The notes under the pieces are model-generated. The model did no database searches, had not been told where the DNA came from, and saw only the letters and a program-made list of their open reading frames with translations. Shown here piece after piece: positions 1 through 36,072 of a stretch of 64,000 nucleotides of DNA. Numbering within the stretch: the first letter of the stretch is position 1; each line of letters begins with the position of its first letter. Both the position numbers and the translations under genes were made by a program. The stretch is taken from assembly GCA_958296135.2 (NCBI GenBank), contig CATQHZ020000002.1:79887-143886 (forward strand), in the 5' to 3' direction. Source of the DNA: an uncultured Poribacteria bacterium. Its GTDB lineage: Bacteria > Poribacteria > WGA-4E > WGA-3G.

Positions 1-466
1 AGCTTAAATTCTTAAGTTTACTACTTAAAGCAATTCTTAAGTTTTTGCCGCCCCACCCAACAGATGTAACATTCCAATACATGGATGCTCTACGTAAATC
101 ATCATATTGATTACCATTAAAATCTAATGATCCCTTTTTAAATCCATTATATGTATAATACCTTCTTTCTTCATACGAAAGAGGATAAAATTTTAACAGA
201 TCATCTATAACTAGATCAGCGTCATTAATCCAATACTTCCAAAAGTTAGCTAGTGGTTCAAAGAAATCGGATCCATGAACTTTAATATTAAGATCGGTTA
301 ATCTAAGTTCTAGACCGCCGCCACCAAAAAATGGCGATACTATTTCTTTTGTTCCTTTTGGCAAATATTTTAAAAAACAGGGATAGAAGTTCCGCTTACT
401 ACCCATATACTTTAACGGAGTCTCAATTGATGGAGACCCCAATAAATTTAATTGCTTGTCTTTCAT
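1..466 (-). CDS. Dam-like (D12 class) DNA adenine methyltransferase, partial (runs off the window start)
   Basis: Hand translation from ATG at 466 (RBS GAGG): MKDKQLNLLGSPSIETPLKYMGSKRNFYP...EIVSPFFGGGGLEL...GSDFFEPLANFW; paralog of 12895..13755; not in the ORF track. Confidence 0.85.
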   Translation of the reverse strand, partial: MKDKQLNLLGSPSIETPLKYMGSKRNFYPCFLKYLPKGTKEIVSPFFGGGGLELRLTDLNIKVHGSDFFEPLANFWKYWINDADLVIDDLLKFYPLSYEERRYYTYNGFKKGSLDFNGNQYDDLRRASMYWNVTSVGWGGKNLRIALSSKLKNLS

Positions 467-498
467 ATTCAACCTCAATATTTTTTTTAACTCTTTGT

Positions 499-570
499 TC
501 CTATATATAATATAGCCGATGGGGGGCTGTTATCAGAGCAGACAACCACTCTTTTTCGCCCCCAGACAAC
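499..570 (-). promoter_or_regulatory. Class-B upstream repeat, copy 1 (putative promoter/operator)
   Basis: TCCTATATATAATATAG..CGAT...TGTTATCAGA.CAGACAACC...TTTTTCGCCC recurs at 3983-4054; both copies lie just upstream of minus-strand genes. Confidence 0.65.
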
Positions 571-574
571 TAAC

Positions 575-2272
575 CTATTTTCTGATCACCATTTTCCTTG
601 TGGCTATAAAATTCTTAGTAATCAGCGTGTAAAAGTAAACTCCACTGGCTACTCGTTCTCCATATTCATTTTTGCCATCCCAATATGCCGCCCTTGATCT
701 ACTCATATAAACCCCGCTTGGCTGATGTCCAAGATCTAATGATCTGACAAGTTGCCCATTCACTCCATAGATTTCTATAGTCACATTGGTTGGTTCATCC
801 AATTCATATGGAATCCACGTTTCAGGATTAAACGGGTTTGGATAGTTAACGCCCAATGCGGCGTTAGTCACAAAAGTAGGTTGTTGAGGAGCCGCTCCAT
901 AACTCGATCTATCCTGACCGAATAACTGATCTCCCATATATTTAATGTCATTTATTACTTGTCGATACCTTATATTATCCTGTTTAATAAAATCATTCAT
1001 CGTTTCTTGAGCAATATATGGACCATTGTCATCAATTATTTCATCAATTATTTCTTCGATTTCTATAAACCCATCATTATGACATGTCATACAGCTTGTT
1101 CCATTAATAATTGGACTATTATCTGAAATATCATCTGGAGTATTATCTGGAATTGCAACAATATCAGTTGGAGCCTGTGGTAGCCTTACTCCTTTACTAT
1201 TAGTAATAAAATAAGCATGTAATCCATTTGGTAATGTGAATATCATTTCGCCGCCAGCATGTTCAAAATTTAATGGATGTTCAGCAATATTATTTATTCC
1301 AGTGCTATTATCAAAATCATATGATCTATAATAAACACCATTAGCGGCTTCTGATTTCATAAGAGGATACTTAAACGGAATTCGTTCAACTATTCTATTG
1401 TGGTAAGATACATTAGATTTACCTTCTGCTATTCCAACGACATCATATAATTTCTGGCTAGCAAATGGATTTGGAGTATAGAAAACAATTCCTCCAAGAG
1501 GTGAATACGGGATTGATGGAGATAATCTTTCATTAGTCAATTCATCTTCAGTATTTGGTAATCTTAATATATCATGATATAAAGGAGGTTTAGAAGCGTT
1601 TTCAAGAAACCAATCAATAGGAATAATCGGATATTTTGGTTGTGTTACCCCATCAACCATATCTAATATTTCATCATAAATAGAATTTGATTGATAAGAT
1701 CCATCATCTTGATAATGAGCTTCTAATAATTGCCAACTTGTAGATCCTGCAGGACCAAAAGAAGTTCGAACATTAATTGAAAAAATCATTCCATATGATC
1801 CATGAACTATTTCAGGATAAATAATTGTTGGTCTCCATGAAAAACGATTTAATAACTTAGTTAAATCTATAAAATCTGATTTTCTATTATTAGTCACAGT
1901 AAAATATCGTTTCCATTCTTGATCGTATCCATCACCATATTCTAAATCATCTTTAACAAGAGATAAAATTTCATTATCACTTAATTCATGCCAATCAGAA
2001 CTTCTAGAATCGACCCAATCTTGTATAGAGTCAATATCGGATTGATCTAATTCTGGTTTGCCTAATGGCATTACTCCAAACCCATCTACTCCATTAGTAA
2101 TCGCATTAGGAATTAAATTTACATTTCGATCTAAAAATTGATTATCATGACAACTACTACAATTCTTTTCAAGTATATTAGAAACTTCTTGTTCTATTTG
2201 TGCTGGCGATGGTCCAGCATTCAGTGACATACAAGCTGATAATGCCATAGCGCCAAGCGTCTTGAACTTCAT
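575..2272 (-). CDS. Secreted c-type cytochrome-domain protein (two CxxCH) with C-terminal FlgD-Ig/T9SS-A-like sorting domain
   Basis: Signal peptide MKFKTLGAMALSACMSLNA; CSSCH and CMTCH; HAGGEMIFTLPNGL motif; C-terminal NYPNPFNPETWIPY...YWDGKN...SGVYFY...RKMVIRK. Confidence 0.8.
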   Translation of the reverse strand: MKFKTLGAMALSACMSLNAGPSPAQIEQEVSNILEKNCSSCHDNQFLDRNVNLIPNAITNGVDGFGVMPLGKPELDQSDIDSIQDWVDSRSSDWHELSDNEILSLVKDDLEYGDGYDQEWKRYFTVTNNRKSDFIDLTKLLNRFSWRPTIIYPEIVHGSYGMIFSINVRTSFGPAGSTSWQLLEAHYQDDGSYQSNSIYDEILDMVDGVTQPKYPIIPIDWFLENASKPPLYHDILRLPNTEDELTNERLSPSIPYSPLGGIVFYTPNPFASQKLYDVVGIAEGKSNVSYHNRIVERIPFKYPLMKSEAANGVYYRSYDFDNSTGINNIAEHPLNFEHAGGEMIFTLPNGLHAYFITNSKGVRLPQAPTDIVAIPDNTPDDISDNSPIINGTSCMTCHNDGFIEIEEIIDEIIDDNGPYIAQETMNDFIKQDNIRYRQVINDIKYMGDQLFGQDRSSYGAAPQQPTFVTNAALGVNYPNPFNPETWIPYELDEPTNVTIEIYGVNGQLVRSLDLGHQPSGVYMSRSRAAYWDGKNEYGERVASGVYFYTLITKNFIATRKMVIRK

Positions 2273-2294
2273 AACATGGCTCCCACATGAGTTC

Positions 2295-2317
2295 GGGAGG
2301 GGAATTGAACCCCTCCC
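2295..2317 (-). terminator. Hairpin between 2325 ORF and cytochrome gene
   Basis: GGGAGGGG-AATTGAA-CCCCTCCC 8-bp stem; no strong U-tract. Confidence 0.45.
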
Positions 2318-2324
2318 AATGTTA

Positions 2325-2522
2325 CTAATAGTCTTGCGTAACTAGAAAGTTAATTTTATTTCGAAGCCCATCATATAAATCATTAATTTCTTTTTGTGAC
2401 TTACATTTATCTAGTTTTTGATCCGCAATAGCAAACTGATTAAGAATCTCTTTACGCATTACACCGATCACGGTTTTTGTTATCGGAATGTTATGATTTA
2501 AAAGCTCTGAATTTATACTCAT
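2325..2522 (-). CDS. Hypothetical protein
   Basis: 65-aa ORF in operon orientation with RBS. Confidence 0.6.
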   Translation of the reverse strand: MSINSELLNHNIPITKTVIGVMRKEILNQFAIADQKLDKCKSQKEINDLYDGLRNKINFLVTQDY

Positions 2523-2527
2523 TTTAA

Positions 2528-4379: not shown

Positions 4380-5528
4380 CTAAAAGAATGATACTTGTTG
4401 GTTTTTGTAAACCGTAGAAAAGATTTTAAATTGAGCATTACCATATTTTTCAAGTAATCCTACTTCAAGATCTCTATGCGTCCAACTTATTTGATCAAGC
4501 ATGCAAAAATTGTGCATTCTTCTATACAAATATCCTGGTATACCTTCTACGTTTGATTCTTTTTTTAATCGGCTAAGATCTTCACAAAACGGACATCTAT
4601 GATTTGTGACTTCCCGAGCCCATCTAAGTTTTTCTTCTGTCATATTGTCGTCTTCATTATCCCGAAGGAGACTACACGATATGCCACCAATATATGGAAA
4701 ATAAATCTTGCCAAGCCCAGCACCAATAATCGGAGTGCTTGCGTCAAAGGTCCTAATACCCAAATAGTGCAATATAAATACAGATCCTGGAGACGATATT
4801 CCTAAACAATGAATTCCAACTCCTTTCTTTTTTAATACTTTTTGTAATTCGTTTAACATAGTTAACGCAGCACCTCTTAATTGTCGTGGCGATCCAGGAT
4901 GCGTTAAGCATGATGCGGAATAAGATGCAAATTTACTCTTATCAAGCATTGGTTTATATGAATTATACATATAATCAATATCTTGATCCTTTCTTAAATG
5001 AAATACTGGTGCGACTTTACCTTGAATTTCTGGTTTTAAGCACTCAAAAAACTTAAGGGACGCTTCAATTGTATTGTTAATCTTTCTTTTATATCCGTCA
5101 TGATAAACATCAGACAGATTTGGCGGATGATCGGGCATAATGTAAATGTCCGCCCAATCATATTCGTTATAGAGTTCTTCATTGTGCTTCTGAAGATCAT
5201 CTAAATTAGAAATACCTCTACTCTTTAACGATCCTGTTAGAACTTGAAATCCCCCAGAATCAAACATTATATTATCAATTACGCCTTCGCCTTTTAACTC
5301 CTTAAGATAATCTAAAATGCCTTTATTTTTTCGTAAAGCCACAGGTGTTAAGAGCATATTTCTAAATGGTTTTGCTTTTGGCGTTCCTTGCCAATCATAA
5401 TTGTTAACCAAATCCATCGCAAATTCAACATGATCAGACATTACGTTTCTGGTTGGAGTACCAATCGCCTGAAAGAATGAACTTTTATGTCGTTTGAACC
5501 CGTCATTTTCTTCCTTAAGATCTACCAT
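4380..5528 (-). CDS. dpdA: TGT-fold guanine transglycosylase, DpdA-like (probable DNA 7-deazaguanine insertion)
   Basis: IMFDSGGFQ catalytic motif, IHCLG, FDAST, HxCPFC...HN Zn site; FolE/QueC/QueE in the same genome region; next to dnaE. Confidence 0.75.
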   Translation of the reverse strand: MVDLKEENDGFKRHKSSFFQAIGTPTRNVMSDHVEFAMDLVNNYDWQGTPKAKPFRNMLLTPVALRKNKGILDYLKELKGEGVIDNIMFDSGGFQVLTGSLKSRGISNLDDLQKHNEELYNEYDWADIYIMPDHPPNLSDVYHDGYKRKINNTIEASLKFFECLKPEIQGKVAPVFHLRKDQDIDYMYNSYKPMLDKSKFASYSASCLTHPGSPRQLRGAALTMLNELQKVLKKKGVGIHCLGISSPGSVFILHYLGIRTFDASTPIIGAGLGKIYFPYIGGISCSLLRDNEDDNMTEEKLRWAREVTNHRCPFCEDLSRLKKESNVEGIPGYLYRRMHNFCMLDQISWTHRDLEVGLLEKYGNAQFKIFSTVYKNQQVSFF

Positions 5529-5614: not shown

Positions 5615-8600
5615 TTAAAATTCAATAAAATTTTCAGCCCGTTTGTTCCTATTAGTAGGAATAACACATCCTTTTCCAAACAATTCCTCAATTTTGTCAA
5701 CGATCTTTGGATTGTAATCCAATTTATAGTCACTAGAACTTTGAGCAACTACTGTTCCATAATCGATAGTCTTCAAATGTAATACTAAGTTCTTATTACC
5801 CTGATAATCTTTAACTATTTGTTGTAATGATTCCAATTTTTCTTGGTTATCAATGTCAGGTTCTTGAATAACTACTTCGACTGTATCTATGAGTTTGCCT
5901 ATATCCTCTAGATTCATAATCCGATTAATAACTAATTGTTTAGTCTTCTTTCTAGAATCGGTTGATAGTGATCCGTGTACTAATGAAATCATTCCGCTTT
6001 CAACTTGATCAGAATACGATTGCCAAGTATTCGGAAACGCTACCGCATTAAGAGTTCCTTCTAGATCTTCTATTACCATAGAAGCCATTGATTCTTTCTT
6101 TCTAGTCTTAAACGGTTTAAGATCTGTAATCAATCCAACTAAATAAATATCATTTTTCCTATCTAAAGCGGTTACCGTATTAGAATTCGTAAAATTCTTT
6201 ATTATTTGTTTGTGCTGTTCCAATGGATGACCAGAAACATAGAATCCGAGTTGATCCTTTTCATTTTGGAGCTGTTCTATAATTGACCATGGTTCAACCT
6301 CTTTCATTGTGGCTACAGCTTTCGGACCGCTATCAAACATATCAAATAAATTAACTTGCCCTTGATCTTTATCAGATTTTGCACTTTCTGCAGTCTTCAT
6401 AACTAGATCAAGATTTTCCAGAAATTGTGCCCGATGACCATCAAACGAATCTAACGCTCCACACATGATTAAGTTTTGGATCGTCTTCTTACTAACCGTC
6501 TTTGTATCAACTCGCTCGCAAAAGTCTTCAAATGATTCGAATTTACCATCTTTTCTAGCATTAAGTATCTCTTCGATCGCGCTTTCACCAACATTACTAA
6601 TTGCAATTAATCCGAACAGAATAGAATCTTTGTCCACAGAAAAATGGCGTTGACTTCTATTGATATCTGGCGGCAACAATTTTATGGTTCTATCTAGAAA
6701 TTCTTCTAGGTTAACGCATTCATTCCTATACTTAATAAATTTATCGGTATTTGTATGCTCACCAGTCATCATCGCCGCCATAAATTCATGCGGATAATGA
6801 GTTTTTAAGTATGCCATTCTATAAGCTAGAATCGAATAAGCGACCGTATGACTTTTATTAAACGCATATTGACCAAACGGTTCCAAAATATCAAAAACTT
6901 GACTAGCTTTCTCTTCAGAAATTCCATTTTCTATAGCACCATCAACAAACTTTTCGCGCTGTTCCATTAGAAGCGGTTTATTCTTCTTACCCATTGCCGA
7001 TCTAAGCACATCAGCTTCACCCATTGTGAACCCAGCCATATCTCGAGCGATCTGCATTACCTGTTCCTGATAAACACAAACCCCATAAGTTCCTTCTAGA
7101 GCATCTTTTAACAGAGGATCTAAGTAAGTAATTGCTTCCCGACCATGCTTCCTATTAATAAATTGCTTCATCATTCCACTCTTCAGTGGTCCAGGTCGGT
7201 ATAATGCTGGAATTGCTACAAATTCCTCAAAACTTTCTGGTCGTAAATCAATTGTTACCTGTTTCATACCAGGCGATGTCTCTAATTGAAATAATCCTTG
7301 AAGTAATCCCTTTTGAATTAAATTAAAAGTTGGTTCATCATCAAACGGAATCTCAGTTAATATGATTTCTTTACCATGATTTTCTTTAATTAGTTCTAGG
7401 CAATCATAAACTTCAGTTAAACTCCTGATTCCGAGCGTATCAAACTTAATAATTCCAATATCTTCTACGGCTTTACCTTCATATTGTGTCGCTATTTGAT
7501 CGTTTCGATCCTTAAAAAGTGGAACATAATCTGTCAGAGGTCCATTTGACACCACAATAGCAGAGGCATGACAAGAAACATGGCGTTTCATTCCCTCCAC
7601 TTTCTGTGCTAAATCAATTAACTCTCGATTTTTTGGAAGTTCAGCCTCTTTTCTCAATGCAGAATTTTCTGATAATGCATCATCTATTGTAAACTTATTA
7701 GCAGATTCTGGAATTAAACTAGTAATCTTCTTAATTTGTTCGTTTGGTATTTCTAATGCTTTACCAACATTATTAATTGCCGCTTTTGCACTTAATGTTG
7801 AAAATGTTGCTACCTTTCCGACAGAATCATGCCCATATTTATCAACTAAATATTGGATTACATGTTCCCGCGCTCGATCCGAGAAATCAATATCAATATC
7901 TGGCGGACTAATTCTATCCAGATTTAGAAAACGTTCAAAAAAGCATCCATAATCCATCGGATTAAATGTAATTACATCAAGTGCGAAAAGCACCAAACTG
8001 CTACCACCACTACCACGAGCAGAAAGAGGATATCCTTTGCTATTAGCAAAGCGCACATAATCCCAAACAACCAAGAAATAACCGGCATACCCTGTTTTAG
8101 CAATGATTTCCAGTTCATAATCTAGCCGTTCCTTAATTTCGGTTGATAATTCCCCATATTTCTTTTTCAAACTTGTATAACAAAGTTCTTTTAGGTAAGA
8201 ATCATTAGTATGACCTTGAGGAACTTCGTATTCTGGCAGTAAATTATCTCCATAATCAAGCTCAATATTACAGCGTTCCGCAATCCGCATAGTATTTGTT
8301 AATGCTTCTTCCGGATACATCTTGAGAGCTTCTTTCATTTCGTCATAAGTTTTAAAATAGAAATGATTATCAAACATCATTCTATCTGTATCATTAACCG
8401 TCTTCTTCATTTGAATGCAAAGCAGAATATCATGCATATAATGATCTTCTCGATTCAGGTAATGACAGTCATTAGTTCCAACTATTGGTATATCGTATTC
8501 TTTTGCTAATTCATAAATAACTGGATAAGCTTGTTCTTCTTCTTTAATATAATGATTTTGCACTTCGGCATACAAATTGTCTTTGCCAAGCACATCGATT

Positions 8601-9076
8601 AACTGCTTAAAATTAGCAATACCCTTCTCTTTACTTGTGGATATAGCTTTCGGCACAAAGCCAGCAACACAACCAGTTAATCCAATGATTCCTTCATTGT
8701 GATCTCGAAGAATTTCCATATCGATTCGTGGTTTACTATAGAATCCTTCTGTATAGCCCACAGAAACCATCTTAAGTAGATTCTTATATCCAGTAGCATT
8801 TTCGGCAAGCAATGTTAAATGATATGGTGGTCCCTGTTCCTTGCCTCTAGTCTTTCTACTGCCTGGCGCGACATAAACTTCACAGCCAACAATTGGATTG
8901 ACACCCTTTTGCCGAGCCTTTGTCATGAAATCCCATGCAGTAAACATATTTCCATGATCTGTTAAACCCACAGCGGATGAGCTGTTTTGGACAGCCCAAT
9001 CCACCATGTCTTCGATCTTACAAGCACCATCAAGCAGACTTCCATCTGAATGATTATGTAAATGTATAAATTCCAT
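5615..9076 (-). CDS. dnaE: DNA polymerase III alpha subunit
   Basis: PHP HLHNHS/TDHG, ARGSGG, PPDIDIDF, KFDTLG, AFNKSH, OB fold, internal clamp motif QVNLF. Confidence 0.97.
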   Translation of the reverse strand: MEFIHLHNHSDGSLLDGACKIEDMVDWAVQNSSSAVGLTDHGNMFTAWDFMTKARQKGVNPIVGCEVYVAPGSRKTRGKEQGPPYHLTLLAENATGYKNLLKMVSVGYTEGFYSKPRIDMEILRDHNEGIIGLTGCVAGFVPKAISTSKEKGIANFKQLIDVLGKDNLYAEVQNHYIKEEEQAYPVIYELAKEYDIPIVGTNDCHYLNREDHYMHDILLCIQMKKTVNDTDRMMFDNHFYFKTYDEMKEALKMYPEEALTNTMRIAERCNIELDYGDNLLPEYEVPQGHTNDSYLKELCYTSLKKKYGELSTEIKERLDYELEIIAKTGYAGYFLVVWDYVRFANSKGYPLSARGSGGSSLVLFALDVITFNPMDYGCFFERFLNLDRISPPDIDIDFSDRAREHVIQYLVDKYGHDSVGKVATFSTLSAKAAINNVGKALEIPNEQIKKITSLIPESANKFTIDDALSENSALRKEAELPKNRELIDLAQKVEGMKRHVSCHASAIVVSNGPLTDYVPLFKDRNDQIATQYEGKAVEDIGIIKFDTLGIRSLTEVYDCLELIKENHGKEIILTEIPFDDEPTFNLIQKGLLQGLFQLETSPGMKQVTIDLRPESFEEFVAIPALYRPGPLKSGMMKQFINRKHGREAITYLDPLLKDALEGTYGVCVYQEQVMQIARDMAGFTMGEADVLRSAMGKKNKPLLMEQREKFVDGAIENGISEEKASQVFDILEPFGQYAFNKSHTVAYSILAYRMAYLKTHYPHEFMAAMMTGEHTNTDKFIKYRNECVNLEEFLDRTIKLLPPDINRSQRHFSVDKDSILFGLIAISNVGESAIEEILNARKDGKFESFEDFCERVDTKTVSKKTIQNLIMCGALDSFDGHRAQFLENLDLVMKTAESAKSDKDQGQVNLFDMFDSGPKAVATMKEVEPWSIIEQLQNEKDQLGFYVSGHPLEQHKQIIKNFTNSNTVTALDRKNDIYLVGLITDLKPFKTRKKESMASMVIEDLEGTLNAVAFPNTWQSYSDQVESGMISLVHGSLSTDSRKKTKQLVINRIMNLEDIGKLIDTVEVVIQEPDIDNQEKLESLQQIVKDYQGNKNLVLHLKTIDYGTVVAQSSSDYKLDYNPKIVDKIEELFGKGCVIPTNRNKRAENFIEF

Positions 9077-9549
9077 TAACCACTCCTAATAGGTTTTGGC
9101 AATCTAATAATTTCATTAATTGAGTCTGGATTATCAAAATATTCCTGAGTTATTTGCCAGAATTGTAGTCTTGGATATTCTATTCCATTATGATTAAAGC
9201 AACCCATTGATTTAGCTTCTTCTCTCATTCCAGTGCTAACTTTTTCCACAGTAATAAATACTCCGGCTATCGCATTATTTATGTTCATAGAATGACAAAA
9301 CGCTCTAATCTGAGCAAGCGTCGGTTTTCCAGATTTAACTTCTGCCATAACTGGACCTTTAGCTGATTCTAATCCTTCTGAAATCCATTCAGAATAGTGA
9401 CCAATACCATCAAATCCACCATCGGCAGAATTATTAGTTGGAGTTAGATTTAGTTTACTAACTGCCCAATCAGAAAAACTATGATAAAGCTTACTATTTA
9501 ACAGATCATTAAGTTCATTCATATTATCTGGATTTAATTGATTTTGCAT
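9076..9549 (-). CDS. Stand-alone Mrr-like PD-(D/E)xK domain, duplicate of the C-terminus of the upstream methyltransferase
   Basis: ADGGFDG...AEVKSGKPTLAQIRAF...QFWQITQEYFDNP nearly identical to the C-terminus of 9623..11185. Confidence 0.8.
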   Translation of the reverse strand: MQNQLNPDNMNELNDLLNSKLYHSFSDWAVSKLNLTPTNNSADGGFDGIGHYSEWISEGLESAKGPVMAEVKSGKPTLAQIRAFCHSMNINNAIAGVFITVEKVSTGMREEAKSMGCFNHNGIEYPRLQFWQITQEYFDNPDSINEIIRLPKPIRSG

Positions 9550-9622: not shown

Positions 9623-11185
9623 TTATATTATTTCTAATAGATCAGCTTGATTATCTTCTACATGTGGATCCATTTTTCTGCTAATTTTAATTCTATCTGG
9701 CAATTTAATTAATTGATTAATTGACTCTGGATTGTCAAAATATTCTTGAGTTATTTGCCAGAATTGTATTTTTTTATATTGAATGCCATTATGATTAAAG
9801 TTTCCCATTTTACTGCCTTCTTCTTTCATTCCAGCACTAACTTTTTCCACAGTAATGAATACTCCGGCTATCGCATTATTTTTCTTTACTGATTGACAAA
9901 ATGCTCTAACCTGAGCCAGTGTTGGTTTTCCAGATTTGACTTCTGCTATAACAATTCCATCATTTAGTTTCATATTTTGCGGAACCCATACCTCGACATC
10001 GCCAACTCCATCATAACCTCCATCATTAGAATTCTGAGTTGGATTTAATCCTATTCTTGTAACCGCCCAATTAGCAAAATCATGATAAGATTTATTATTC
10101 TTAACTAATTCATGAACTTCCTGCATATTGGTCGGATAACCTTCCAAATCATAATCAATACAAGCTTTTAATTTATATCTTTCATATATCCGATCTTTCA
10201 TTGGTTCAAGAGCTAGTAATGTAAGATCTATTCCTTCCCAACGTCTTCTTTTTGCTTGAGCCGCATCAATTGTTGTTCCGCAACCAGCAAATGGATCTAA
10301 AACTAAATCTCCTTTATTTGAAGATGCTTCAATCATCATTTCATATAATTTTCTTGGCTTTTGAGTTGGATAACCTGTTCGCTCTTTACTCTGAGTTGCT
10401 GTACCAAAACTAGGTATATCAGTCCAATAATCTGGAGTTGGAATTCCTAAATATTCATCAAGATACTTTCTTTTTCCATGTTCTTTGGTATAAACCTTAT
10501 ATCGTCTTCCATCTTCATCAATTTTAGGAAATCTTTTTTCAAGATCTTCTTGACTTATATTTTGATACAATCGATTGAAAGTAGACTTATTTGATTTTCT
10601 ATAAAATAGAATATTATCATGCTTTCTTGGATACCCATACTTAGGAGGATTTCCTTTAACTGCATATGTCCAGATTATTTCATTTAGAAAATTTTCGTTA
10701 TCGCAATTATTTTTTTGATCAAAAACAGCATCAAAAATTACTTTTAAATAATGGCTTGCTGTCGGATCGCAATGCAGATAAATACTTCCTGTCGGTTTTA
10801 AAATTCTATGCATTTCAACAATTCGTGGCCCCATAAAAGCTAAATATGAACGCATAGCACCACGCCATCCAGTTTCTTTATGTTGCAATAAATAATCACA
10901 GCCAATTAGAGCTTGATCAACTGAACTATAAACCGTATCATTTAATAAATCATCTTTAGCTCTAATCCGAATATCTTCTCTAGAATTTTCTGCCGATTTA
11001 TCGTAAAACCATATATCGGTAAATGCTTTCTTTTGAGCTTGCGATTCTAAAAAGTCGTTATAATCTCTTCCACTATTAAAAGGTGGATCTGTGCATATTA
11101 TATCAACTCTATTAGACTTCATTTCGCGCATTACTTCTAAATTATCGCCAAAATAAAGTTTATTTCTCATTATCATCTCCTTCAA
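9623..11185 (-). CDS. Beta-class N6/N4 DNA methyltransferase fused to Mrr-like endonuclease-fold domain
   Basis: TDPPFN motif IV, YPTQKP, VLDPFAGCGTT motif I; C-terminal DGGYDG...EVKSG; probable start MRNKLY at 11170. Confidence 0.9.
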   Translation of the reverse strand: MKEMIMRNKLYFGDNLEVMREMKSNRVDIICTDPPFNSGRDYNDFLESQAQKKAFTDIWFYDKSAENSREDIRIRAKDDLLNDTVYSSVDQALIGCDYLLQHKETGWRGAMRSYLAFMGPRIVEMHRILKPTGSIYLHCDPTASHYLKVIFDAVFDQKNNCDNENFLNEIIWTYAVKGNPPKYGYPRKHDNILFYRKSNKSTFNRLYQNISQEDLEKRFPKIDEDGRRYKVYTKEHGKRKYLDEYLGIPTPDYWTDIPSFGTATQSKERTGYPTQKPRKLYEMMIEASSNKGDLVLDPFAGCGTTIDAAQAKRRRWEGIDLTLLALEPMKDRIYERYKLKACIDYDLEGYPTNMQEVHELVKNNKSYHDFANWAVTRIGLNPTQNSNDGGYDGVGDVEVWVPQNMKLNDGIVIAEVKSGKPTLAQVRAFCQSVKKNNAIAGVFITVEKVSAGMKEEGSKMGNFNHNGIQYKKIQFWQITQEYFDNPESINQLIKLPDRIKISRKMDPHVEDNQADLLEII

Positions 11186-12894: not shown

Positions 12895-13755
12895 TTAAAT
12901 TAATTTAACAGTATCACCATATCTTTTAGGAAAGATTACTACTTCTTTGGCTGATTTATGAGTATTTGTTCCTTGATTCCACCATTGATGTTTAATAATA
13001 AAATCATCATCAGAATAAAGATCAAGAATCAATTCATGATTATTATATGATAACATCCATAAAGAATTACGATTTCTTAATATGTCTCTAAGTTCTTCAT
13101 GATTAAAATCAGTATGAAATTTATGGCTATCTCCATATAAGTTTCCGCGTACTGGATATGGAGGATCAAGATATGTGAACGTATCCGGATACCGATTTAA
13201 TTGATCTTTGTAATCTAAAAGATCTACTGTTATTAATGAATTACGAAAGACATCTAATCTATCAAAGAATGTCATTCGATCATGTTCATATCCTTTTAAA
13301 TATGCATCCCGACCAATAATAACATAATTTCTTAAACCAGCAAATGGTATTCCATTCCATGAAAGACAATAAAACAACCATAAATACGCCGCCCGATCAA
13401 GATTATTTGTAATTTTAAAATAATCTTCTTTTTGAAGTTCTTTTAATTCTTCTCTTGTATCACTAAGTAATATTTCTTGTGCTCTTCTAGATAAGTTTTT
13501 ATTATCAGTTAAAATATGCTTCCATAAATTAACCAGCGGTTCAAATAGATCAGATCCAAGCACCCTAATATTTCTACCAGTCAAATACAATTCAAAAGAT
13601 CCGCCACCAAAAAATGGTGATACTACTTCTTTCGTACCTGGAGGTAGAATATTAGCGAAATGTTTTGCTGCTGTAGATTTACTTCCTGGATATCTAAATA
13701 CTCTATCTACAGATCTATTATCTTGTTCAAAGAAATTGAACTGTTTATTAGGCAT
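12895..13755 (-). CDS. Dam-like (D12 class) DNA adenine methyltransferase
   Basis: RYPGSK, SPFFGGGS, YLDPPY, WMLSYN motifs. Confidence 0.9.
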   Translation of the reverse strand: MPNKQFNFFEQDNRSVDRVFRYPGSKSTAAKHFANILPPGTKEVVSPFFGGGSFELYLTGRNIRVLGSDLFEPLVNLWKHILTDNKNLSRRAQEILLSDTREELKELQKEDYFKITNNLDRAAYLWLFYCLSWNGIPFAGLRNYVIIGRDAYLKGYEHDRMTFFDRLDVFRNSLITVDLLDYKDQLNRYPDTFTYLDPPYPVRGNLYGDSHKFHTDFNHEELRDILRNRNSLWMLSYNNHELILDLYSDDDFIIKHQWWNQGTNTHKSAKEVVIFPKRYGDTVKLI

Positions 13756-16818: not shown

Positions 16819-17358
16819 TTATTTAATCATAGATAAAAACTCTTGGCGAGCCGAATGATCTTTTCTAAATACCCCTTCCATTGCACTTGTGATCATATAA
16901 GCGTCTTGTTTTTGAACTCCTCTCATTGACATACAAGTATGCCGAGCTTTACATATAACCCCAACTCCCAACGGATCTAATAAATTCGTTAAAGTATCAG
17001 CTATTTGATTTGTTAATCTTTCTTGAACTTGTAATCTCCTAGCAAACATATCTACGATACGCGGAATTTTACTAAGTCCAATAATTTTTCCATGTGGAAT
17101 ATATCCAACATCACAAGAACCCATAAATGGGAGCAGATGATGTTCACATAAACTATGAAATTCTATATCACGGACTACAACCATTTGATCATAGTTTCCA
17201 TGAAATACCGCATTATTTAAAAGTTGTTCTGGATCAATAGAATATCCAGCGGTTAAGTCTTTCATTGCCTGAGCGGCTCTTGATGGAGTCTTTAATAATC
17301 CTTCTCGTTCAGGATCTTCTCCAATTGATTCTAAAATGTTAAAGTAATGATGTACCAT
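16819..17358 (-). CDS. folE: GTP cyclohydrolase I
   Basis: [42 protein letters not shown]; ATG at 17358 overlaps upstream TAA. Confidence 0.97.
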
Positions 17359-17522
17359 TATTCTCTCCACGGATCCCCATTCACCGCATAATATGTTAAA
17401 AATCCCACTATAATTACTACTATTAATGCGGCTATTATAAATCCAATCATATTCTTCCTTCCAAATACAAAATACGCTAGTATGATGATAAACGTAGCTA
17501 GTAATTCTATGAGTCCAATCAT
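17358..17522 (-). CDS. Small two-TM membrane protein (54 aa)
   Basis: Hand translation [54 protein letters not shown]; ATGA/TAATG coupling on both sides. Confidence 0.6.
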
Positions 17523-19125: not shown

Positions 19126-19806
19126 CTATTGATACGGAATCGGATCTTCAATACCAGATTCTTTAAACGCCGCAAGCCTAATTAAGCAAGAGTCACATTT
19201 TCCACAAGCTCGTCCATATTCATCAGGATCATAACACGAACTTGTAAAAGCGTAATTAACATCTAAGCTTGTTCCCAATCGAATAATATCTACTTTTGTC
19301 AATTCGATTAACGGAGTATAAACATTTATCGGACTACCTTCTACCGTTCTTTTTGTGGCCACATTGACCATGTTTTGATATGCTTTAATATATTCTGGCC
19401 TGCAATCTGGATACCCAGAATAATCTACAGCATTAACACCAGTAAAAATTGCTTCCGCTCCAAGAACTTCCGCATACGATAACGCAAAACTAAGAAAAAT
19501 AGTATTCCTTGCAGGAACATATGTTACCGGAATTGCGTCTGTCATTTCATCCAATGATCTTCCCTTCGGAACTTCGATCGTCGGATCATTAAGAGCACTA
19601 CCACCAAAAGTCGTAAAAGAAACAACCTTATGATCAACAGCATTATGAATCTTACTTGTCGTTTTCGCGCAACTTAATTCATATTTATGACGCTGATTGT
19701 AATCAAAACTTAACGTATGCGTCTCATATCCACCAGCTCGTGCGACCCCCAATGCGGTCGCACTATCCAATCCACCCGACAAAAGTACTACTGCTTTCTT
19801 ACTCAT
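19126..19806 (-). CDS. queC: 7-cyano-7-deazaguanine (preQ0) synthase
   Basis: LLSGGLDS, YVPARN, YPDCR, SCY...CGKCDSC. Confidence 0.97.
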   Translation of the reverse strand: MSKKAVVLLSGGLDSATALGVARAGGYETHTLSFDYNQRHKYELSCAKTTSKIHNAVDHKVVSFTTFGGSALNDPTIEVPKGRSLDEMTDAIPVTYVPARNTIFLSFALSYAEVLGAEAIFTGVNAVDYSGYPDCRPEYIKAYQNMVNVATKRTVEGSPINVYTPLIELTKVDIIRLGTSLDVNYAFTSSCYDPDEYGRACGKCDSCLIRLAAFKESGIEDPIPYQ

Positions 19807-25551: not shown

Positions 25552-26256
25552 CTAAACTCCGCGCTTGGTCCCCCAGAGCCGAGTATGCAGTCTATCCGAA
25601 TATCGAAATCCATGTGCCATACACAATTCAACTAACCATAATTGCTTATCTTCAACTTCTTTTGCTGTTCTTCCTTCTGGCATCAATAAGACATTACGAT
25701 TACTATATTGCCTTAAACTTCCCAGAATATCTTGAATCTCTTCAAGCTCGCTCCCATCTACTACGACAAACTTAAGCTGATAATCCCGAAGATTATTATG
25801 AGTGCAACGACTAATAAATTCATCGATCACATCAATCTTAACTCGTTCTCGATCATGTTTCTTCGCCCACTTCGGATCGCGATCATATGGAGTTGAACTT
25901 TCTAACTTTGGACTCATCGACATTAAATCAAATTCAACTTCCTCAAAGATCGTAGCATTTGTTTCAATCGTAATATGATAGCCGTCATACCAAAGTTGGT
26001 CACAAAGAAATCTTAATTCTTTTTTCCATACGAATGGTTCGCCACCAGTAATAACTACGTTCTTACAGCCATACTCTTCAATCATGTTGACTGCTTGTTC
26101 TACTGTGACCTCTTTATTTTCCGGCTTCCAACTAGTATATGGCGTATCGCACCAATGACATCTTAAGTTGCAGTGAGAAACCCGAAAAAATACGCTTGGT
26201 AGACCTGTCTTAATTCCTTCACCTTGAATCGAGTAGAAAATTTCTGACATCTTCAT
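25552..26256 (-). CDS. queE: 7-carboxy-7-deazaguanine synthase (radical SAM)
   Basis: EIFYSIQGEG, CNLRCHWCDT, ITGGEP, IETN, SPKL, RLH..LWG. Confidence 0.95.
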   Translation of the reverse strand: MKMSEIFYSIQGEGIKTGLPSVFFRVSHCNLRCHWCDTPYTSWKPENKEVTVEQAVNMIEEYGCKNVVITGGEPFVWKKELRFLCDQLWYDGYHITIETNATIFEEVEFDLMSMSPKLESSTPYDRDPKWAKKHDRERVKIDVIDEFISRCTHNNLRDYQLKFVVVDGSELEEIQDILGSLRQYSNRNVLLMPEGRTAKEVEDKQLWLVELCMAHGFRYSDRLHTRLWGTKRGV

Positions 26257-27032
26257 AATTTATTATCCTCTAATAGATTTATTTGACCAGATTTTTTATC
26301 TTGTTCTAATCTTCTTTTATGAAATTCTTCTTTAACTCTTCTGCTAATTTCTTTTCTTGTTTCAATGGAATGATTTTTATTATACATTCCATTATTTTCA
26401 CCGCTAACTAAATATCCTTTACCATACATCGGATTAGATTTTCCGGTTCTGCCATACATTGGGTGGTTTTTACCTTGAAGGCTTGGTCTTGGTCCACGTA
26501 ATTTTTCTTTATGATCTTCAGACAACGATTTATTCTTATTCCAAGCAACTTGCCCTCGTCTTCCATAATTTGGATGATCTTTACCAGTTTTCCCATATAA
26601 AGGACTATTTTTCCCTTGCAAATGCGGTCTCGGACCACGAGCATTTGGTCTTGGACCACGAAGTTTTTCTTTAACCTCTTCCGACCATGGTTTATTCTTA
26701 TTCCAAGGTTCTTTTCCATAAGTTGGATGATCTTCTCCACAAGGAAATCCTTCGCCGCCAATAGTTAAATTATATCCAAACCCTTTATATGTATTAAGAG
26801 ATGCTATTGTTCGTATTTCTAAATCTGATAGCATCCATTCTGGTATATTATCATAAAGAATTTCCCAACCGAAATTATTAGATCCATATTTTTGTATTGC
26901 TGAATCTATTCCAATTTTCAAATTACTTCTAAAATGTTCCCGAATTCGATCTTTTATATTTCTAGCAGTTTTCCCAATATATGATTTTTGGTTACTTATT
27001 TTATAGATTCTATAAATACATCCATATTTCAT
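26253..27032 (-). mobile_element. Free-standing GIY-YIG homing endonuclease with NUMOD3-like repeats
   Basis: GCIY...SYIG, E...I...GYNLTIGG; repeated (N/H)PMYG(K/R) and SEE/DxKEKL; AAAGGAG RBS before ATG at 27032. Confidence 0.85.
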
Positions 27033-27075
27033 AATTAATTCTCCTTTATGGGTAGGGCTAAACCCTACCATTATG

Positions 27076-28188
27076 TTATGCAGATAAAAGAGCGATCGTA
27101 TAGATCTGATTCTCTTTATCAGGACATTTTAAAGTAATTCTAAGATTATCTGGTGACATTAAAATCATAACTTCTTCGCAATCTAAATGATTTAAAACTC
27201 CAGACAAAAACTTCGCATTAATTTTAAAATCGATAGCTTCTGTTTTACTAGAAATATCTACAGACTCGTGACCATCATATTCCAGGTTGTTCTGAGCTGT
27301 AATATCTAAAGTATTTTCTTCTTCGTTAACCGAAAGATCAATCCCATAACTATCATCTCGAGCAAATAACCCAATTCTTTGAATTGCTCTTAATAGTTGA
27401 TCTTTATTTGCGAGTACCGCTTTTCCATTCTCGAAGTTAATAATCGCCCAGTAATTTGGATAACCTTCATCGCCTAGTTCGATTTTTCTAGACGAAAACT
27501 GATATGTATTAGTAAAGAATACTAAGTAATTATTTTCCACAAAGACAAAGATGTCTTCATCATCAGAAAATACCTTTTTAATTTCCTGACAAGACTTCAA
27601 TGGAATTACCATTTGCTCTATTTCTTTATCAATTTTAGTTTGATATGTAGCTACAGCAAACATTCTTCCATCGCAACCAGCAAACTCGATTTTATCACTG
27701 TAAAACGTAAGAGAAACCCCATGAAGCCGATATCGAACTTCTTCAGTTGATGCTGCAAAATCAGTATCGATCAGAGCCGCTTTTAAATTTCCAGCCGGAA
27801 TAATAAAATCAACTTCTTCTTCATTTACTTCTGGCATTCTAGGAAATTCGTCAGCCTCTAGTCCGCCAAAAGAATATTTACCTTTACCACTTAATACCTG
27901 CAATCGATCAGTAGTCGTAGTTCTTAAATCTACTTCTTTTGCGTCCAAAGACTTAATTAGATTTGCTAACTTTTTACAATTAACTGTAATTTTACCCCGT
28001 TCCTCAGTTTTGCCATCAACTAAAATTCTTGTTGATATTTCTCCATTAGTCGCTGTGCAATATAATCCATGATCAACAGCATCTAAAAGAACGTTTTGCA
28101 GAATTGGAGTCGTCGTTCTATTTGGAGTAACAGATTGCAACTTCTGTAACGCTTGTGCCAATTCTTTTTGCTTTATAGTAATTTTCAT
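27076..28188 (-). CDS. dnaN: DNA polymerase III beta sliding clamp
   Basis: PILQNVLL, ATNGE, EFP, R..LHGV, GCDGR, YPNY, INAKFL; 370 aa. Confidence 0.92.
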   Translation of the reverse strand: MKITIKQKELAQALQKLQSVTPNRTTTPILQNVLLDAVDHGLYCTATNGEISTRILVDGKTEERGKITVNCKKLANLIKSLDAKEVDLRTTTTDRLQVLSGKGKYSFGGLEADEFPRMPEVNEEEVDFIIPAGNLKAALIDTDFAASTEEVRYRLHGVSLTFYSDKIEFAGCDGRMFAVATYQTKIDKEIEQMVIPLKSCQEIKKVFSDDEDIFVFVENNYLVFFTNTYQFSSRKIELGDEGYPNYWAIINFENGKAVLANKDQLLRAIQRIGLFARDDSYGIDLSVNEEENTLDITAQNNLEYDGHESVDISSKTEAIDFKINAKFLSGVLNHLDCEEVMILMSPDNLRITLKCPDKENQIYTIALLSA

Positions 28189-28665: not shown

Positions 28666-29058
28666 CTAAAACATAAAATGGAGTTGGACCGGTTCTCTTT
28701 TTGGAGGTTCATAGACACCCAAAATTCTTTCATATTTATTGATTAGTTTCATAAAGAAATCAGATTCGTCGCCAAAAAATTCTTGAACTTTAGCGCACCA
28801 GTCCGCCCTCTCTGAAAATTCATCAGTCAAAGAATTATAGATTTCTTTTAGTTGATTAGCTTGTTCTTTTTCATCAATCTTTTCGTATTCTACTATAACA
28901 TCAGCAACATAATTTTGCAAATACTCTATATTTGCATAAGTATCATAACTTGGCTCATCAGCATTGACAAGCCAAAACATTTCATTTCTAGCATAAGCGA
29001 TCTTTTGCTTCATTCTAGCATTATGTAATGCTGTTTTTACTGCACTATTCCAATCCAT
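28666..29058 (-). CDS. Hypothetical protein ending in QLHFMF
   Basis: 130 aa; C-terminal clamp-motif-like hexapeptide. Confidence 0.65.
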   Translation of the reverse strand: MDWNSAVKTALHNARMKQKIAYARNEMFWLVNADEPSYDTYANIEYLQNYVADVIVEYEKIDEKEQANQLKEIYNSLTDEFSERADWCAKVQEFFGDESDFFMKLINKYERILGVYEPPKREPVQLHFMF

Positions 29059-33665: not shown

Positions 33666-33684
33666 TATAAAAATACTTGGAAAA

Positions 33685-34030: not shown

Positions 34031-34038
34031 TTAAAAAA

Positions 34039-34112
34039 TACCGCTGAAGAGATTTGAACTCTTACTGAAAAGTGTTTAAGACTTTTGCCTCTGCCAGTTG
34101 GGCTACAGCGGC
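34039..34112 (-). tRNA. tRNA-Leu (anticodon UAA), short variable loop
   Basis: GCCGCTG/CAGCGGT acceptor, AAAGT-CTTAAAC-ACTTT anticodon arm, AAGAG-TTCAAAT-CTCTT T arm. Confidence 0.88.
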
Positions 34113-34117
34113 TTATA

Positions 34118-34936
34118 TTATGATCTTTTATTTCGAGGTCCAGAAACTCTAATTTCTATTCCTTCTTCCGTAAGGATCTTTTTTATATGAGTTGAACTAC
34201 AGTTATATTCTATTCTTAAAGCGTATACTGATTTTCCATTTAAATACTGATCAATAATTTCTTCTTTCTGTGCTCGAATATCATATCGATAACTAATATT
34301 ATTTACTCCAATATTGCCAGGAATACTATCATCAATTTTAGTTCTTTTATTATCAGTAATATTATTATTACTATCTTTAATTCTTCTAAGCGGTAAATCA
34401 ATTATATTATTTTCAAAACAAATCGTTTTAAAAAGATCTGTTTTTATAATTTTATCAATTGTAGAAATAGAACTATTTAAGTAATTAGCAATATCTTTTT
34501 TATGAATTTCATATCCTTCTTTTTTAGATTTAATATAATATTTAGCAATTTCTTTAACCCGCTCTCCCAAAAACGACAATCCTATCTGATTTATATCAAA
34601 TTCTATTCTTTCTTCATCTGTTGTTTCAACTGGTATTTTTTCAGTTAAGCTCCGATAAATTAATTGATCGTCAATACCCAACTTAGGTTTTAAAGCATCT
34701 TTTAAAGCCTTTTCTAAATTATCAATATCGTACCCATTATTTAATTTACTTTTTAAAATATAGAAGTTAGCAATTAATCCAAACTTATAACATTTATCTA
34801 AATTAAAATCTGGAACTTGTTTTCTAATGTCATCGTAATATTTGTTCCTATCATACATTTTATCCGAATTGCAATTTACCCTTAAAGTATAATAACTTCT
34901 TGGGATAATCTTAACAATATACATATTTACCTCCAA
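34118..34936 (-). CDS. RusA-like Holliday junction resolvase fused to HTH-like segments
   Basis: DIDNLEKALKDAL...IDDQLI RusA motif; C-terminal IANYLNSSISTI and YLNGKS...EYNCS...IL...GI. Confidence 0.7.
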   Translation of the reverse strand: MEVNMYIVKIIPRSYYTLRVNCNSDKMYDRNKYYDDIRKQVPDFNLDKCYKFGLIANFYILKSKLNNGYDIDNLEKALKDALKPKLGIDDQLIYRSLTEKIPVETTDEERIEFDINQIGLSFLGERVKEIAKYYIKSKKEGYEIHKKDIANYLNSSISTIDKIIKTDLFKTICFENNIIDLPLRRIKDSNNNITDNKRTKIDDSIPGNIGVNNISYRYDIRAQKEEIIDQYLNGKSVYALRIEYNCSSTHIKKILTEEGIEIRVSGPRNKRS

Positions 34937-34938
34937 AA

Positions 34939-35012
34939 AGTCCCTAGCAGGACTCGAACCTGCAACTTCCGGATTAGAAATCCAGTGCTCTGTCCAATTG
35001 AGCTATAGGAAC
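34939..35012 (-). tRNA. tRNA-Arg (anticodon UCU)
   Basis: GTTCCTA/TAGGGAC acceptor, CTGGA-TTTCTAA-TCCGG, GCAGG-TTCGAGT-CCTGC. Confidence 0.92.
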
Positions 35013-35183
35013 ACGCGATAAAGGAAGCAAGGAGGTTAAAAAAATCTTCCTTTATCGATACCGGATCGATGGTCCTTGTAGTTGGGGTAACCAAGAAAAA
35101 CCAACTAATAGACTGATCCTTCCTATAAAGACCTTGAATAGAACTTTTAATTCAATTCCCATTATTTAAACTGTCCTATCCTT

Positions 35184-35226
35184 TATATTATTAAAATATT
35201 AAATTTTCAACCCCTTTTAAATCCAA
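35184..35226 (-). promoter_or_regulatory. Class-A promoter repeat, copy 7
   Basis: TATATTATTAAAATATTAAATTTTCAACCCCTTTTAAATCCAA; upstream of the RNA gene cluster. Confidence 0.8.
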
Positions 35227-35256
35227 GAAATTTTTATTTGAAAATTATTTTTTCAA

Positions 35257-36072
35257 TCAAATTAATACTACTTGACGATTTGGATCTATGTTATTTAGTC
35301 TGTTATTGCTTAACTCAACAAAATTATTATTAATCTCAAAGGATATAAAATTTCTATTGGTGCGCTTACATACCGCCGCACATGTTCCTACCCCAGAAAA
35401 TGGATCAAGAACCAAATCGTCTTCTAAAGAGCTAGCTAATATTAATCGTTCAAATAATTTTTCCGGTTTCTGAATCGTATTTAATGCGTCTCGAGAAACG
35501 AGTTCTTTTGAATTATATGTAAGCTGTTTAATATCCCCCCAAACATCTCCTGGGTTCTTTCCATCTTTATTAAATTTAGTTTTGCTATATTTACCACCTA
35601 TTACAGACGGAACCTGTTCACAGCGAATACGATGAGATAATTCCACTAGTTGTGGTACCCGAATATCATCCAGGTTATAACATCGAGGACGCTTTCCTTT
35701 AATAAAATAACAAATGATATCATAATTATTTGTATAATTAATTTTCCCTTGTGACAATCTACTCGGTTGATACCAAACGATTTTTGATTTTAATGTTAGA
35801 AATTTTCTATAATCAATAAAATCAATACAATCCGGTTTTCCAAATAAATATAGAGATCCACCTTCTTTTAATTTTTCAGCAAATAACTCAATAAGATTTA
35901 AATTAAATTCTTGAATTAATTCTATTTTGTCCCAGTCATAATTTGTTATACCATAAGGACCATCACATATAATTAAATCTACGGATTCATTATCTACTGA
36001 TTTAATTAGTTCAAACATATCTCCACAATAAATATTATTTAATTTTATCATAATTTCTTTTTTATTGGTCAC
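35257..36072 (-). CDS. Beta-class N4/N6 DNA methyltransferase
   Basis: IICDGPY (variant motif IV), GKNPGDVW, QKPE.L, VLDPFSGVGT. Confidence 0.9.
   Translation of the reverse strand: MTNKKEIMIKLNNIYCGDMFELIKSVDNESVDLIICDGPYGITNYDWDKIELIQEFNLNLIELFAEKLKEGGSLYLFGKPDCIDFIDYRKFLTLKSKIVWYQPSRLSQGKINYTNNYDIICYFIKGKRPRCYNLDDIRVPQLVELSHRIRCEQVPSVIGGKYSKTKFNKDGKNPGDVWGDIKQLTYNSKELVSRDALNTIQKPEKLFERLILASSLEDDLVLDPFSGVGTCAAVCKRTNRNFISFEINNNFVELSNNRLNNIDPNRQVVLI

Follow-up and report, generated by a model that had tools for sequence, protein, structure and literature searches.

Conserved terminal peptides of putative clamp-binding type on the DNA-modifying enzymes of a tailed phage

We describe short terminal peptides on the DNA-modifying enzymes of a tailed phage, encoded in a 64,000-nucleotide stretch (the window) of an uncultured Poribacteria assembly (GenBank GCA_958296135.2, contig CATQHZ020000002.1). 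The peptides have the form Q-x-x-[LF]-[LFI] and sit at one terminus of a DpdA-like DNA 7-deazaguanine transglycosylase, of two D12-class DNA methyltransferases (Dam-1 and Dam-2) and of a fusion that joins an N6_N4 DNA methyltransferase (MTase) to a Mrr-like domain (MTase-Mrr). Comparison with relatives indicates that the peptides of these four proteins are real, conserved terminal motifs of the type that binds the beta sliding clamp. The reading that we favor, and hold to be rather probable, is that they are clamp-binding motifs (CBMs) by which the modifying enzymes are tethered. The motifs are present, they are conserved within families while the adjoining linkers vary, they match both the CBM consensus and the motif of the phage's own DnaE, and they are scarce in cellular DpdA and Dam proteins. 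In the two proteins that were modeled, the DpdA-like protein and MTase-Mrr, the motif is placed in a terminus predicted to be disordered. From these observations we infer that the peptides bind a clamp, with the phage's or the host's ring as the candidate partner, and that the phage would gain a benefit against restriction.

The sequence-only reading that this analysis followed up had listed QLNLL (Dam-1), QVSFF (DpdA-like protein), QADLL (MTase-Mrr), QFNFF (Dam-2) and QVVLI (a further N6_N4 enzyme, the 35257 MTase), together with an internal QVNLF in DnaE and a dnaN gene; every one of these was found where it had been placed. Three more terminal instances were recognized beyond that list: QINLL in a GIY-YIG/NUMOD3 homing-type endonuclease, five residues from its C-terminus ...SGQINLLEDNKL; the hexamer-like QLHFMF that closes a 130-residue open reading frame (ORF), for which scans of Pfam/PHROG-type libraries gave no family match; and QVTLI at the end of a DUF6884 protein encoded just outside the window. 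These three and the 35257 MTase are, on present sequence evidence, unvalidated as clamp-type tags. The metabolic enzymes had been predicted to be free of tags, and so they are: within 15 residues of either terminus, FolE, QueC, QueE, ThyA, Tmk and Dut are without any peptide of this kind. The internal QVNLF of DnaE lies between the helix-hairpin-helix (HhH) and oligonucleotide-binding (OB) domains. Phage DnaE is 61% identical to the DnaE of the co-binned chromosome (contig G000:C1), and QVNLF aligns with QMSIF of that protein; by this correspondence it is a bona fide motif of the same flavor as the terminal peptides.

A CBM is defined as Q-phi-x-[L/M]-[F/L] or Q-phi-x-[L/M]-x-[F/L], with QLxLF the best binder, position 2 tolerant and Ile tolerated at the last position (PMC11139829). 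Known sites are C-termini, the disordered N-terminus of Hda, or internal positions (PMC11139829). The strict definition is satisfied by QLNLL of Dam-1, QADLL of MTase-Mrr, QVNLF of DnaE and QINLL of the GIY-YIG endonuclease.

The DpdA-like ORF gave no match to Pfam (including the tRNA-guanine transglycosylase, or TGT, family PF01702), PHROG or NCBIfam at the thresholds used, and no sequence match in the PDB; one homolog (P0011, 50% identity) has a precomputed PF01702 assignment. The AlphaFold2 model, built from a 22-sequence alignment, has a mean predicted local distance difference test (pLDDT) score of 90.4. In a Foldseek search of the model against the PDB, every listed match, ranks 1 to 50, is a tRNA-guanine or archaeosine transglycosylase (E about 2e-9, template-modeling score about 0.55, probability 1.00). 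D90-S-G-G-x-Q95, D262 and H310-x-C312-P-x-C315...H339 are invariant in the 22 sequences; these Asp and Cys/His residues are the presumed counterparts of the catalytic Asp and the zinc ligands of TGT. Given that FolE, QueD, QueE and QueC are encoded on the same phage, the DNA modification is most naturally read as being of preQ0 type.

The only low-confidence segment of this model comprises the last six residues (377-382, pLDDT <50). The DpdA-like protein has 21 homologs (27-87% identity). The exact C-terminus is Q-x-x-[LF]-[FLVW] in 16 of them and Q-L-[LY]-F in three more, and two have no motif; the tails include QISFF, QHDLF, QITLF, QISLF, QFSLF, QLSLW and QLTLF. The roughly 20 residues ahead of the motif vary freely, and Q378 is at least 90% conserved. 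More distantly, the tail was found in 2 of 82 metagenomic or viral rows of DpdA homologs (five mis-framed rows and one cut row being kept in the denominator) and in none of 80 DpdA homologs from bacterial genomes. The tail thus distributed appears clade-specific, and its independent gain is supported. Scans of IMG/VR gave only two relatives of the protein, both distant, INPHARED phages contained no close one, and tblastn against isolated viruses found relatives only in a Thermocrinis virus and in TGT-like genes of archaeal rudiviruses. DpdA3, which is reported to replace all guanines, was considered for the DpdA-like protein; tblastn at E up to 10 gave no match to such phages, and the protein was not assigned to it.

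A second, independent DpdA clade ends in comparable tails and is linked in the genome to an annotated clamp gene. In a small sample of seven isolated 7-deazaguanine phages, picked by identity spread (9g, Seurat, PaMx25, Vibrio AQKL99, Stenotrophomonas Bhz54, Achromobacter ART and Rhizobium RHEph04), the DpdA C-ends are ..RLQDLFDE, ..RVMELF, ..RIQELF, ..MTQGLF, ..NEQMELF, ..NKQMELLG and ..TREQRLF. In six of the seven, dpdA either adjoins a gene that its depositors annotated as replicative clamp or is separated from it by no more than two small ORFs; this gene is in turn followed by the DNA polymerase. The clamp identity is that of the depositors' annotation only, the 'replicative clamp' genes of 9g, PaMx25 and RHEph04 giving no match in Pfam.

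Both Dams belong to the D12 class, with PF02086 scores of 82.4 bits for whole Dam-1 and 86.5 bits for Dam-2 against a cut-off of 22. The closest relative of Dam-1 (P0262, 69% identity) begins MVDKQLNLF. A search with Dam-1 returned 145 new cluster representatives, 39 of which carry a motif in the first 25 residues (MQLNLL, MQIQLL, QLNLF, QITLF, QMDLF, QVSLF and others), and in seven the motif is the exact C-terminal pentapeptide (QLYLF, QLMLW, QYELF, QMYLF and others). Where the N-terminal extension measures at least seven residues, the motif occurs in 31 of 110 relatives versus 3.0 in shuffles (maximum 9 in 1000). For Dam-2, 16 of the 19 relatives with at least 47% identity have Qxx[LF][FL] at offsets 2-15, then a variable spacer and the conserved RVFRYPGSK; QLSLF (three times), QINLF, QIDLF and QMNFF are among these motifs. 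In more distant relatives the N-terminal motif is present in 7 of 100, P0128 and P0130 bear it as their last five residues, and cellular-type Dams at 35-39% identity to Dam-2 mostly begin right at the domain. Shuffling of the Dam-2 extensions gave 3.9 expected carriers (maximum 13 in 1000) for 21 observed. INPHARED phages include no close relative of Dam-2 (best 32% identity).

The Dam motifs sit in extensions of variable length ahead of the Pfam domain start. When 52 instances are pooled, their composition reads Q, then L, I or M, then N, S or T, then L or F, then F or L, which in essence is the published QL[SD]LF or QLxLF consensus. The motif is N-terminal in most carriers, forms the exact C-end of nine others and is absent from most cellular-type Dams, a pattern that lends support to independent gain in this family also.

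In MTase-Mrr the motif is older. A penta- or hexameric Q motif lies in the last 16 residues of 118 of 120 homologs, 46 of which conform to the strict published definition, and the Gln is at least 90% conserved in the homolog alignment. Residues 496-515 of the phage protein are predicted to be disordered (pLDDT <50). Many homologs reside on megabase bacterial contigs, and the co-binned chromosome itself holds about 28 MTase-Mrr paralog loci, 17 with Q-type C-terminal tails. Because it is common among homologs on bacterial chromosomes, the MTase-Mrr tag is ancestral and cellular, and not a phage-specific convergent gain. The proposal that unrelated modifying enzymes had gained their tags convergently therefore holds in part: it is supported for DpdA and the Dams, whose tail is scarce in cellular homologs, and it falls for MTase-Mrr.

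The Q tails of the chromosomal paralogs comprise EQTYF (seven times), QLAVEL, QTVLPLGL, QNMLW and others, and the remaining paralogs mostly end hydrophobic, for example ..RTLPLSF and ..GERRVL; near-identical tails in some of the paralogs suggest a multi-copy element. In the window, a stand-alone Mrr-like ORF of 157 residues adjoins MTase-Mrr and is 61% identical to its C-terminal domain; it ends ahead of the tail position and has no motif.

The case of the 35257 MTase is different. Homologs at 70-75% identity are found in most chromosomes of the co-binned lineage, and of 29 chromosomal tails 24 lack a Q motif, the other five having QxxLF or QxxLxF near the end (QGVLF, QQILEF, QRTLEF). The G000:C1 homologs of this enzyme (71% identity) and of the DUF6884 protein (43% identity) are without the tail that the phage copy has. 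IMG/VR scans gave a single, distant relative of the 35257 MTase and INPHARED phages no close one (best 34% identity). QVVLI, which had been put forward as the weakest match among the tags, is thus not borne out by its homologs; it may be a recent gain.

With these data the alternatives can be weighed. One of them is chance: the genome is A+T-rich and its proteins abound in N, F, L, I and K, so that peptides of the form Q-x-x-hydrophobic-hydrophobic are to be expected near termini, and the listed ones were picked post hoc. For 178 greedy ORFs of the contig (143,886 bp), with 45,238 residues in all, termini were scored against shuffles that follow the composition of each protein. The loose pattern Qxx[LFIMV][LFIMVWY] was observed 17 times at termini versus 14.3 expected (P=0.29), QxxL[LF] three times within 15 residues of a terminus versus 1.8 (P=0.25), and the published definition, penta- or hexameric, three times versus 1.04 (P=0.087); the QxxL[LF] scan, which the sequence-only reading had proposed as a check on itself, yielded no enrichment. 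The post hoc pattern Q[LIVMFY][SDNT][LF][LF] has five matches in the whole phage proteome, four of them terminal versus 0.22 expected, and all five are in DNA-acting proteins (the N-ends of Dam-1 and Dam-2, the C-ends of the DpdA-like protein and the GIY-YIG endonuclease, and the internal site of DnaE). The in-genome count depends on the motif definition; it is suggestive and by itself not decisive. The peptides are set apart from chance because they are kept in relatives, rather than by this count: four families conserve them between variable flanks, in relatives at 27-87% identity, every one of the 1000 shuffles falls short of the observed Dam counts, and most cellular homologs of DpdA and Dam lack the motif. 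As judged from these family data, chance is refuted for the DpdA-like protein, Dam-1, Dam-2 and MTase-Mrr, and as an account of the whole pattern we consider it very improbable; it may explain the unvalidated QVVLI, QLHFMF, QVTLI and QINLL.

Several findings weigh against tethering to a clamp, and the counts for QxxL[LF] and for the published definition are among them. QVSFF and QFNFF, with F at position 4, and QVVLI, with I at position 5, miss the strict definition, as do QVTLI and QLHFMF. All four methyltransferases in the window had been said to be tagged, which is so within the window, but a fifth one of the phage, of N6_N4 type, has no tag; nor do a second GIY-YIG endonuclease, RecJ, RNA ligase, and the Gam-like, RusA-like, SprT-like and stand-alone Mrr-like proteins. 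The N-terminal peptides depend on start-codon calls, and the family counts are drawn from related sequences, not independent events. The clamp itself gives further reason for caution. Phage DnaN has PF00712, PF02767 and PF02768 all above cut-offs, and PDB beta clamps match it with E values of 1e-31 to 1e-33. Its identity to DnaN of the co-binned chromosome is 37%. Of 115 columns conserved at 90% or more in 46 cellular DnaN, 55 are different in the phage protein: among them, T172 is replaced by C, L177 by F and the C-terminal P-M-R-L by L-L-S-A (TIALLSA versus IMPMRLES at the C-end). These replaced positions presumably belong to the peptide cleft as numbered in the E. coli clamp, although no E. 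coli alignment reached the C-end. A canonical CBM may not fit such a cleft; one may speculate that the F-rich tags QVSFF and QFNFF are fitted to it. Cleft residues of the E. coli clamp are listed in PMC11139829. No clamp-loader family match was obtained on the phage contig, and two above cut-off were obtained on the co-binned chromosome. The cleft of phage DnaN being divergent and the phage contig giving no clamp-loader match, the phage clamp and the host clamp are therefore both candidates for the tags. A complex prediction of phage DnaN (47-row alignment) with DpdA-like residues 343-382, run without controls, returned a score of 0.00 and no verdict, speaking neither for nor against binding.

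Two further alternatives accept the motifs as functional. The conserved peptides could serve a role that involves no clamp, such as binding to another hub protein, a protease or degradation signal, self-association or autoinhibition, or packaging into the capsid with DNA. Conservation proves function and not partner, several instances depart from the strict definition, and the presumed cleft residues of phage DnaN are altered, all of which would fit a role of this kind. It is nonetheless unlikely in our estimate, as the pooled composition follows the CBM consensus position by position, pentameric and hexameric forms are both present as in known CBMs, the canonical clamp site of phage DnaE has the same flavor, every carrier is a DNA-acting protein, and dpdA adjoins an annotated clamp gene in an independent phage group. 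Alternatively, the clamp would be bound for other ends: the tagged proteins could compete with host clamp clients to take over or poison replication, or could use the host clamp only, with phage DnaN reserved for DnaE. The same tail on MTase-Mrr homologs of bacterial chromosomes makes host clamps plausible partners, the distribution of clamp-loader matches and the divergent cleft of phage DnaN point the same way, and MuC is a known case of a phage protein whose CBM gives it use of the host clamp (bioRxiv 10.1101/2025.01.04.631326). Yet the tagged enzymes are intact, have kept their catalytic motifs and are encoded beside a complete preQ0 pathway, none of which a pure competitor needs, and we regard this alternative as improbable, less credible than a clamp-free role.

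If the peptides are clamp tethers, modification would proceed as follows. By their tags, the DpdA-like transglycosylase, which would insert preQ0, the two Dams and MTase-Mrr would dock in the hydrophobic cleft of DnaN, in either the phage's ring or the host's; the 35257 MTase, the DUF6884 protein and the GIY-YIG endonuclease would probably dock likewise. A clamp loaded at a primer end would remain on the new duplex, and a tail held in one of the two clefts of the ring would keep the enzyme on nascent DNA, where it could scan in one dimension. Methylation and base exchange would then follow the fork, so that DNA is modified while being made, presumably ahead of host restriction.

The window is the final part of contig G000:C2. 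Genes for a lysozyme, capsid protein, prohead protease, tail tube protein, RecJ, a sigma factor, QueD and a primase-polymerase mark this contig as a tailed phage. Nearly all genes of the contig are on the minus strand, including every peptide-bearing gene of the window. Pfam bears out the gene calls that had been made in the window from sequence alone (Dam-1, DnaE, MTase-Mrr, Dam-2, the preQ0 genes, thymidylate kinase (Tmk), thymidylate synthase (ThyA), dUTPase (Dut), DnaN and the 35257 MTase); the SSB of the window ends in DDIPF. The contig is co-binned with the 5.0-Mb chromosome G000:C1 (54.4% G+C). Base composition differs between the two (37% versus 54% G+C), yet phage DnaE and the 35257 MTase are 61% and 71% identical to chromosomal genes, identities that point to the co-binned lineage as host of the phage or donor of genes. 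Features and their coordinates are collected in Table 1.

Table 1 Coordinates of the peptide-bearing genes and of other features (window positions unless a contig is named)
Feature	Position	Strand	Family evidence	Peptide or remark
Window	final 64 kb of G000:C2 (143,886 bp, 36.8% G+C)			
Dam-1, D12-class N6-adenine DNA methyltransferase	2..466 (N-terminal part); whole gene G000:C2:79552-80352	(-)	Pfam PF02086	N-end MKDKQLNLLG; QLNLL at nt 440-454; start ATG at 466-464, GAGG 7 nt upstream
DpdA-like DNA 7-deazaguanine transglycosylase (TGT fold)	4380..5528	(-)		C-end ...KNQQVSFF; QVSFF at 4383-4397
DnaE (Pol III alpha)	5615..9076	(-)	Pfam PHP, DNA_pol3_alpha, finger, HHH_6, OB	internal QVNLF, residues 907-911 (nt 6344-6358)
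MTase-Mrr, N6_N4 DNA methyltransferase and Mrr-like (NA-iREase1) domain fusion	9623..11185	(-)	Pfam	C-end ...NQADLLEII; QADLL at nt 9635-9649, 3 residues from end
Dam-2, D12-class DNA methyltransferase	12895..13755	(-)	Pfam PF02086	N-end MPNKQFNFFEQ; QFNFF, residues 5-9, nt 13729-13743
GIY-YIG/NUMOD3 homing-type endonuclease, between dnaN and queE	26253..27071	(-)	Pfam, PHROG	QINLL at nt 26271-26285
Phage DnaN (beta sliding clamp)	27076..28188	(-)	three beta-clamp Pfam domains	
130-residue ORF	28666..29058	(-)		C-end ...VQLHFMF; QLHFMF at nt 28669-28686
35257 MTase, N6_N4 DNA methyltransferase	35257..36072	(-)	Pfam PF01555	C-end ...NRQVVLI; QVVLI at 35260-35274
DUF6884 protein	G000:C2:77244-77915, just outside window, upstream			C-end ...DKQVTLI
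Fifth methyltransferase, N6_N4 type	C2:75352-76644			no tag
FolE (GTP cyclohydrolase I, preQ0 pathway)	16819..17370	(-)	Pfam	no terminal motif
QueC	19126..19806	(-)	Pfam	no terminal motif
QueE (radical SAM)	25552..26256	(-)	Pfam, NCBIfam	no terminal motif, only two internal loose matches
QueD	G000:C2:69046-69795			outside window, same phage contig
Stand-alone Mrr-like ORF	9076-9549			
FlgD-Ig-like protein	575-2272			565 residues
Adjoining giant ORFs	39205-45978 and 45990-60953	(-), both		2257 and 4987 residues
Counterparts of phage DnaE and 35257 MTase on G000:C1	C1:4173022-4176489 and C1:3462957-3463733			

Some other genes of the phage deserve mention. A full-length Hsp70/DnaK (851 bits) and a class II ribonucleotide reductase are encoded at G000:C2:9021-10880 and C2:16055-18637, and two giant ORFs adjoin each other in the window. 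The FlgD-Ig-like domain of the 565-residue protein is above the Pfam cut-off, and a type IX secretion C-terminal sorting domain is sub-threshold in it (25.2 bits, cut-off 27); it is odd cargo for a phage replication module. On the cellular side, many genomes of the same phylum have two or three tandem dnaN paralogs with differing C-ends (IMPMRLES, MRLDAIHQ, ..EPASPLES), and G000:C1 itself carries a canonical dnaN plus a longer open frame, part of which is DnaN-like.

Phage DNA needs to be modified ahead of cutting by host nucleases, and how modification matches the pace of replication is an open question. A clamp tether, if it operates, would be a simple mechanism for keeping up with the fork. 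It would add methyltransferases and transglycosylases to the clients of the beta clamp, both of which the 2024 review omits (PMC11139829), and it would provide a sequence signature to predict which orphan methyltransferases work at the fork. Isolated phages of E. coli, Pseudomonas and Vibrio with similar DpdA tails beside an annotated clamp offer tractable laboratory systems. More broadly, bacteria and phages might generally couple modification to replication through the sliding clamp, a principle so far overlooked that would parallel DNMT1-PCNA in prokaryotes; we advance this tentatively, as possible but on balance doubtful. Under such a principle D12 Dams, N6_N4 MTases, MTase-Mrr, two DpdA clades and perhaps DUF6884 proteins would have repeatedly gained tags at either terminus. 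A DpdA tail and the neighboring clamp gene would form a functional pair that sets the completeness of guanine replacement in 7-deazaguanine phages, and the host lineage, with its many tailed MTase-Mrr paralogs and its relatives with tandem dnaN, may dedicate clamps to modification or defense.

Comparison with known systems shows where the phage peptides are familiar and where they would be new. In the full-text literature searched, subscription-only papers and supplements lying outside it, no report was found that describes a clamp-binding motif in DpdA or in any DNA methyltransferase of bacteria or phages. The word stem 'methyl' is absent from the 124,676 characters of the 2024 beta-clamp review (PMC11139829), and the word 'clamp' from the available text of the DpdA literature searched, including preprint 10.1101/2023.04.13.536721. 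The phage DpdA families (bDpdA, DpdA1-4) resemble the DpdA-like protein in having a TGT fold and in being encoded with FolE, QueD, QueE and QueC; the DpdA-like protein differs in lacking a Pfam, PHROG or NCBIfam match and could be assigned to no named subfamily. Insertion of 7-deazaguanine by DpdA has been proposed to be post-replicative, and DpdA subfamilies differ greatly in efficiency, with no mechanism stated in the text available (preprint 10.1101/2023.04.13.536721). For plasmid single-strand methyltransferases, a host protein such as the clamp has been speculated to bridge the enzyme and Pol I (PMC7736820).

The bacterial clamp clients (Pol II, Pol III alpha, Pol IV, Pol V, Hda, MutS, MutL and the clamp-loader delta subunit) share with the phage tags a Q-led peptide with two hydrophobic anchors, in penta- and hexameric forms that are C-terminal, in a disordered N-terminus (Hda) or internal, so that composition and placement are alike (PMC11139829). 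Several phage tags depart from them, with F as the fourth residue or I as the fifth. The bacterial clients are polymerases, repair proteins and replication regulators, whereas the putative phage clients are DNA methyltransferases and a DNA transglycosylase. MuC of phage Mu is likewise a non-polymerase phage protein with a CBM; it is a transcription factor, a late activator that needs the host clamp, whereas the present carriers are modifying enzymes of a phage with its own DnaN (bioRxiv 10.1101/2025.01.04.631326). A further parallel is eukaryotic. DNMT1 is recruited to newly replicated DNA by a PCNA-binding peptide of PIP-box type, which raises the efficiency of methylation (PMC9690074). Clamp and motif class are other ones there, with no sequence kinship, and the phage places its tags on several unrelated enzymes; in DNMT1-PCNA as in the model favored here, a methyltransferase is brought to new DNA by way of a clamp-binding peptide.

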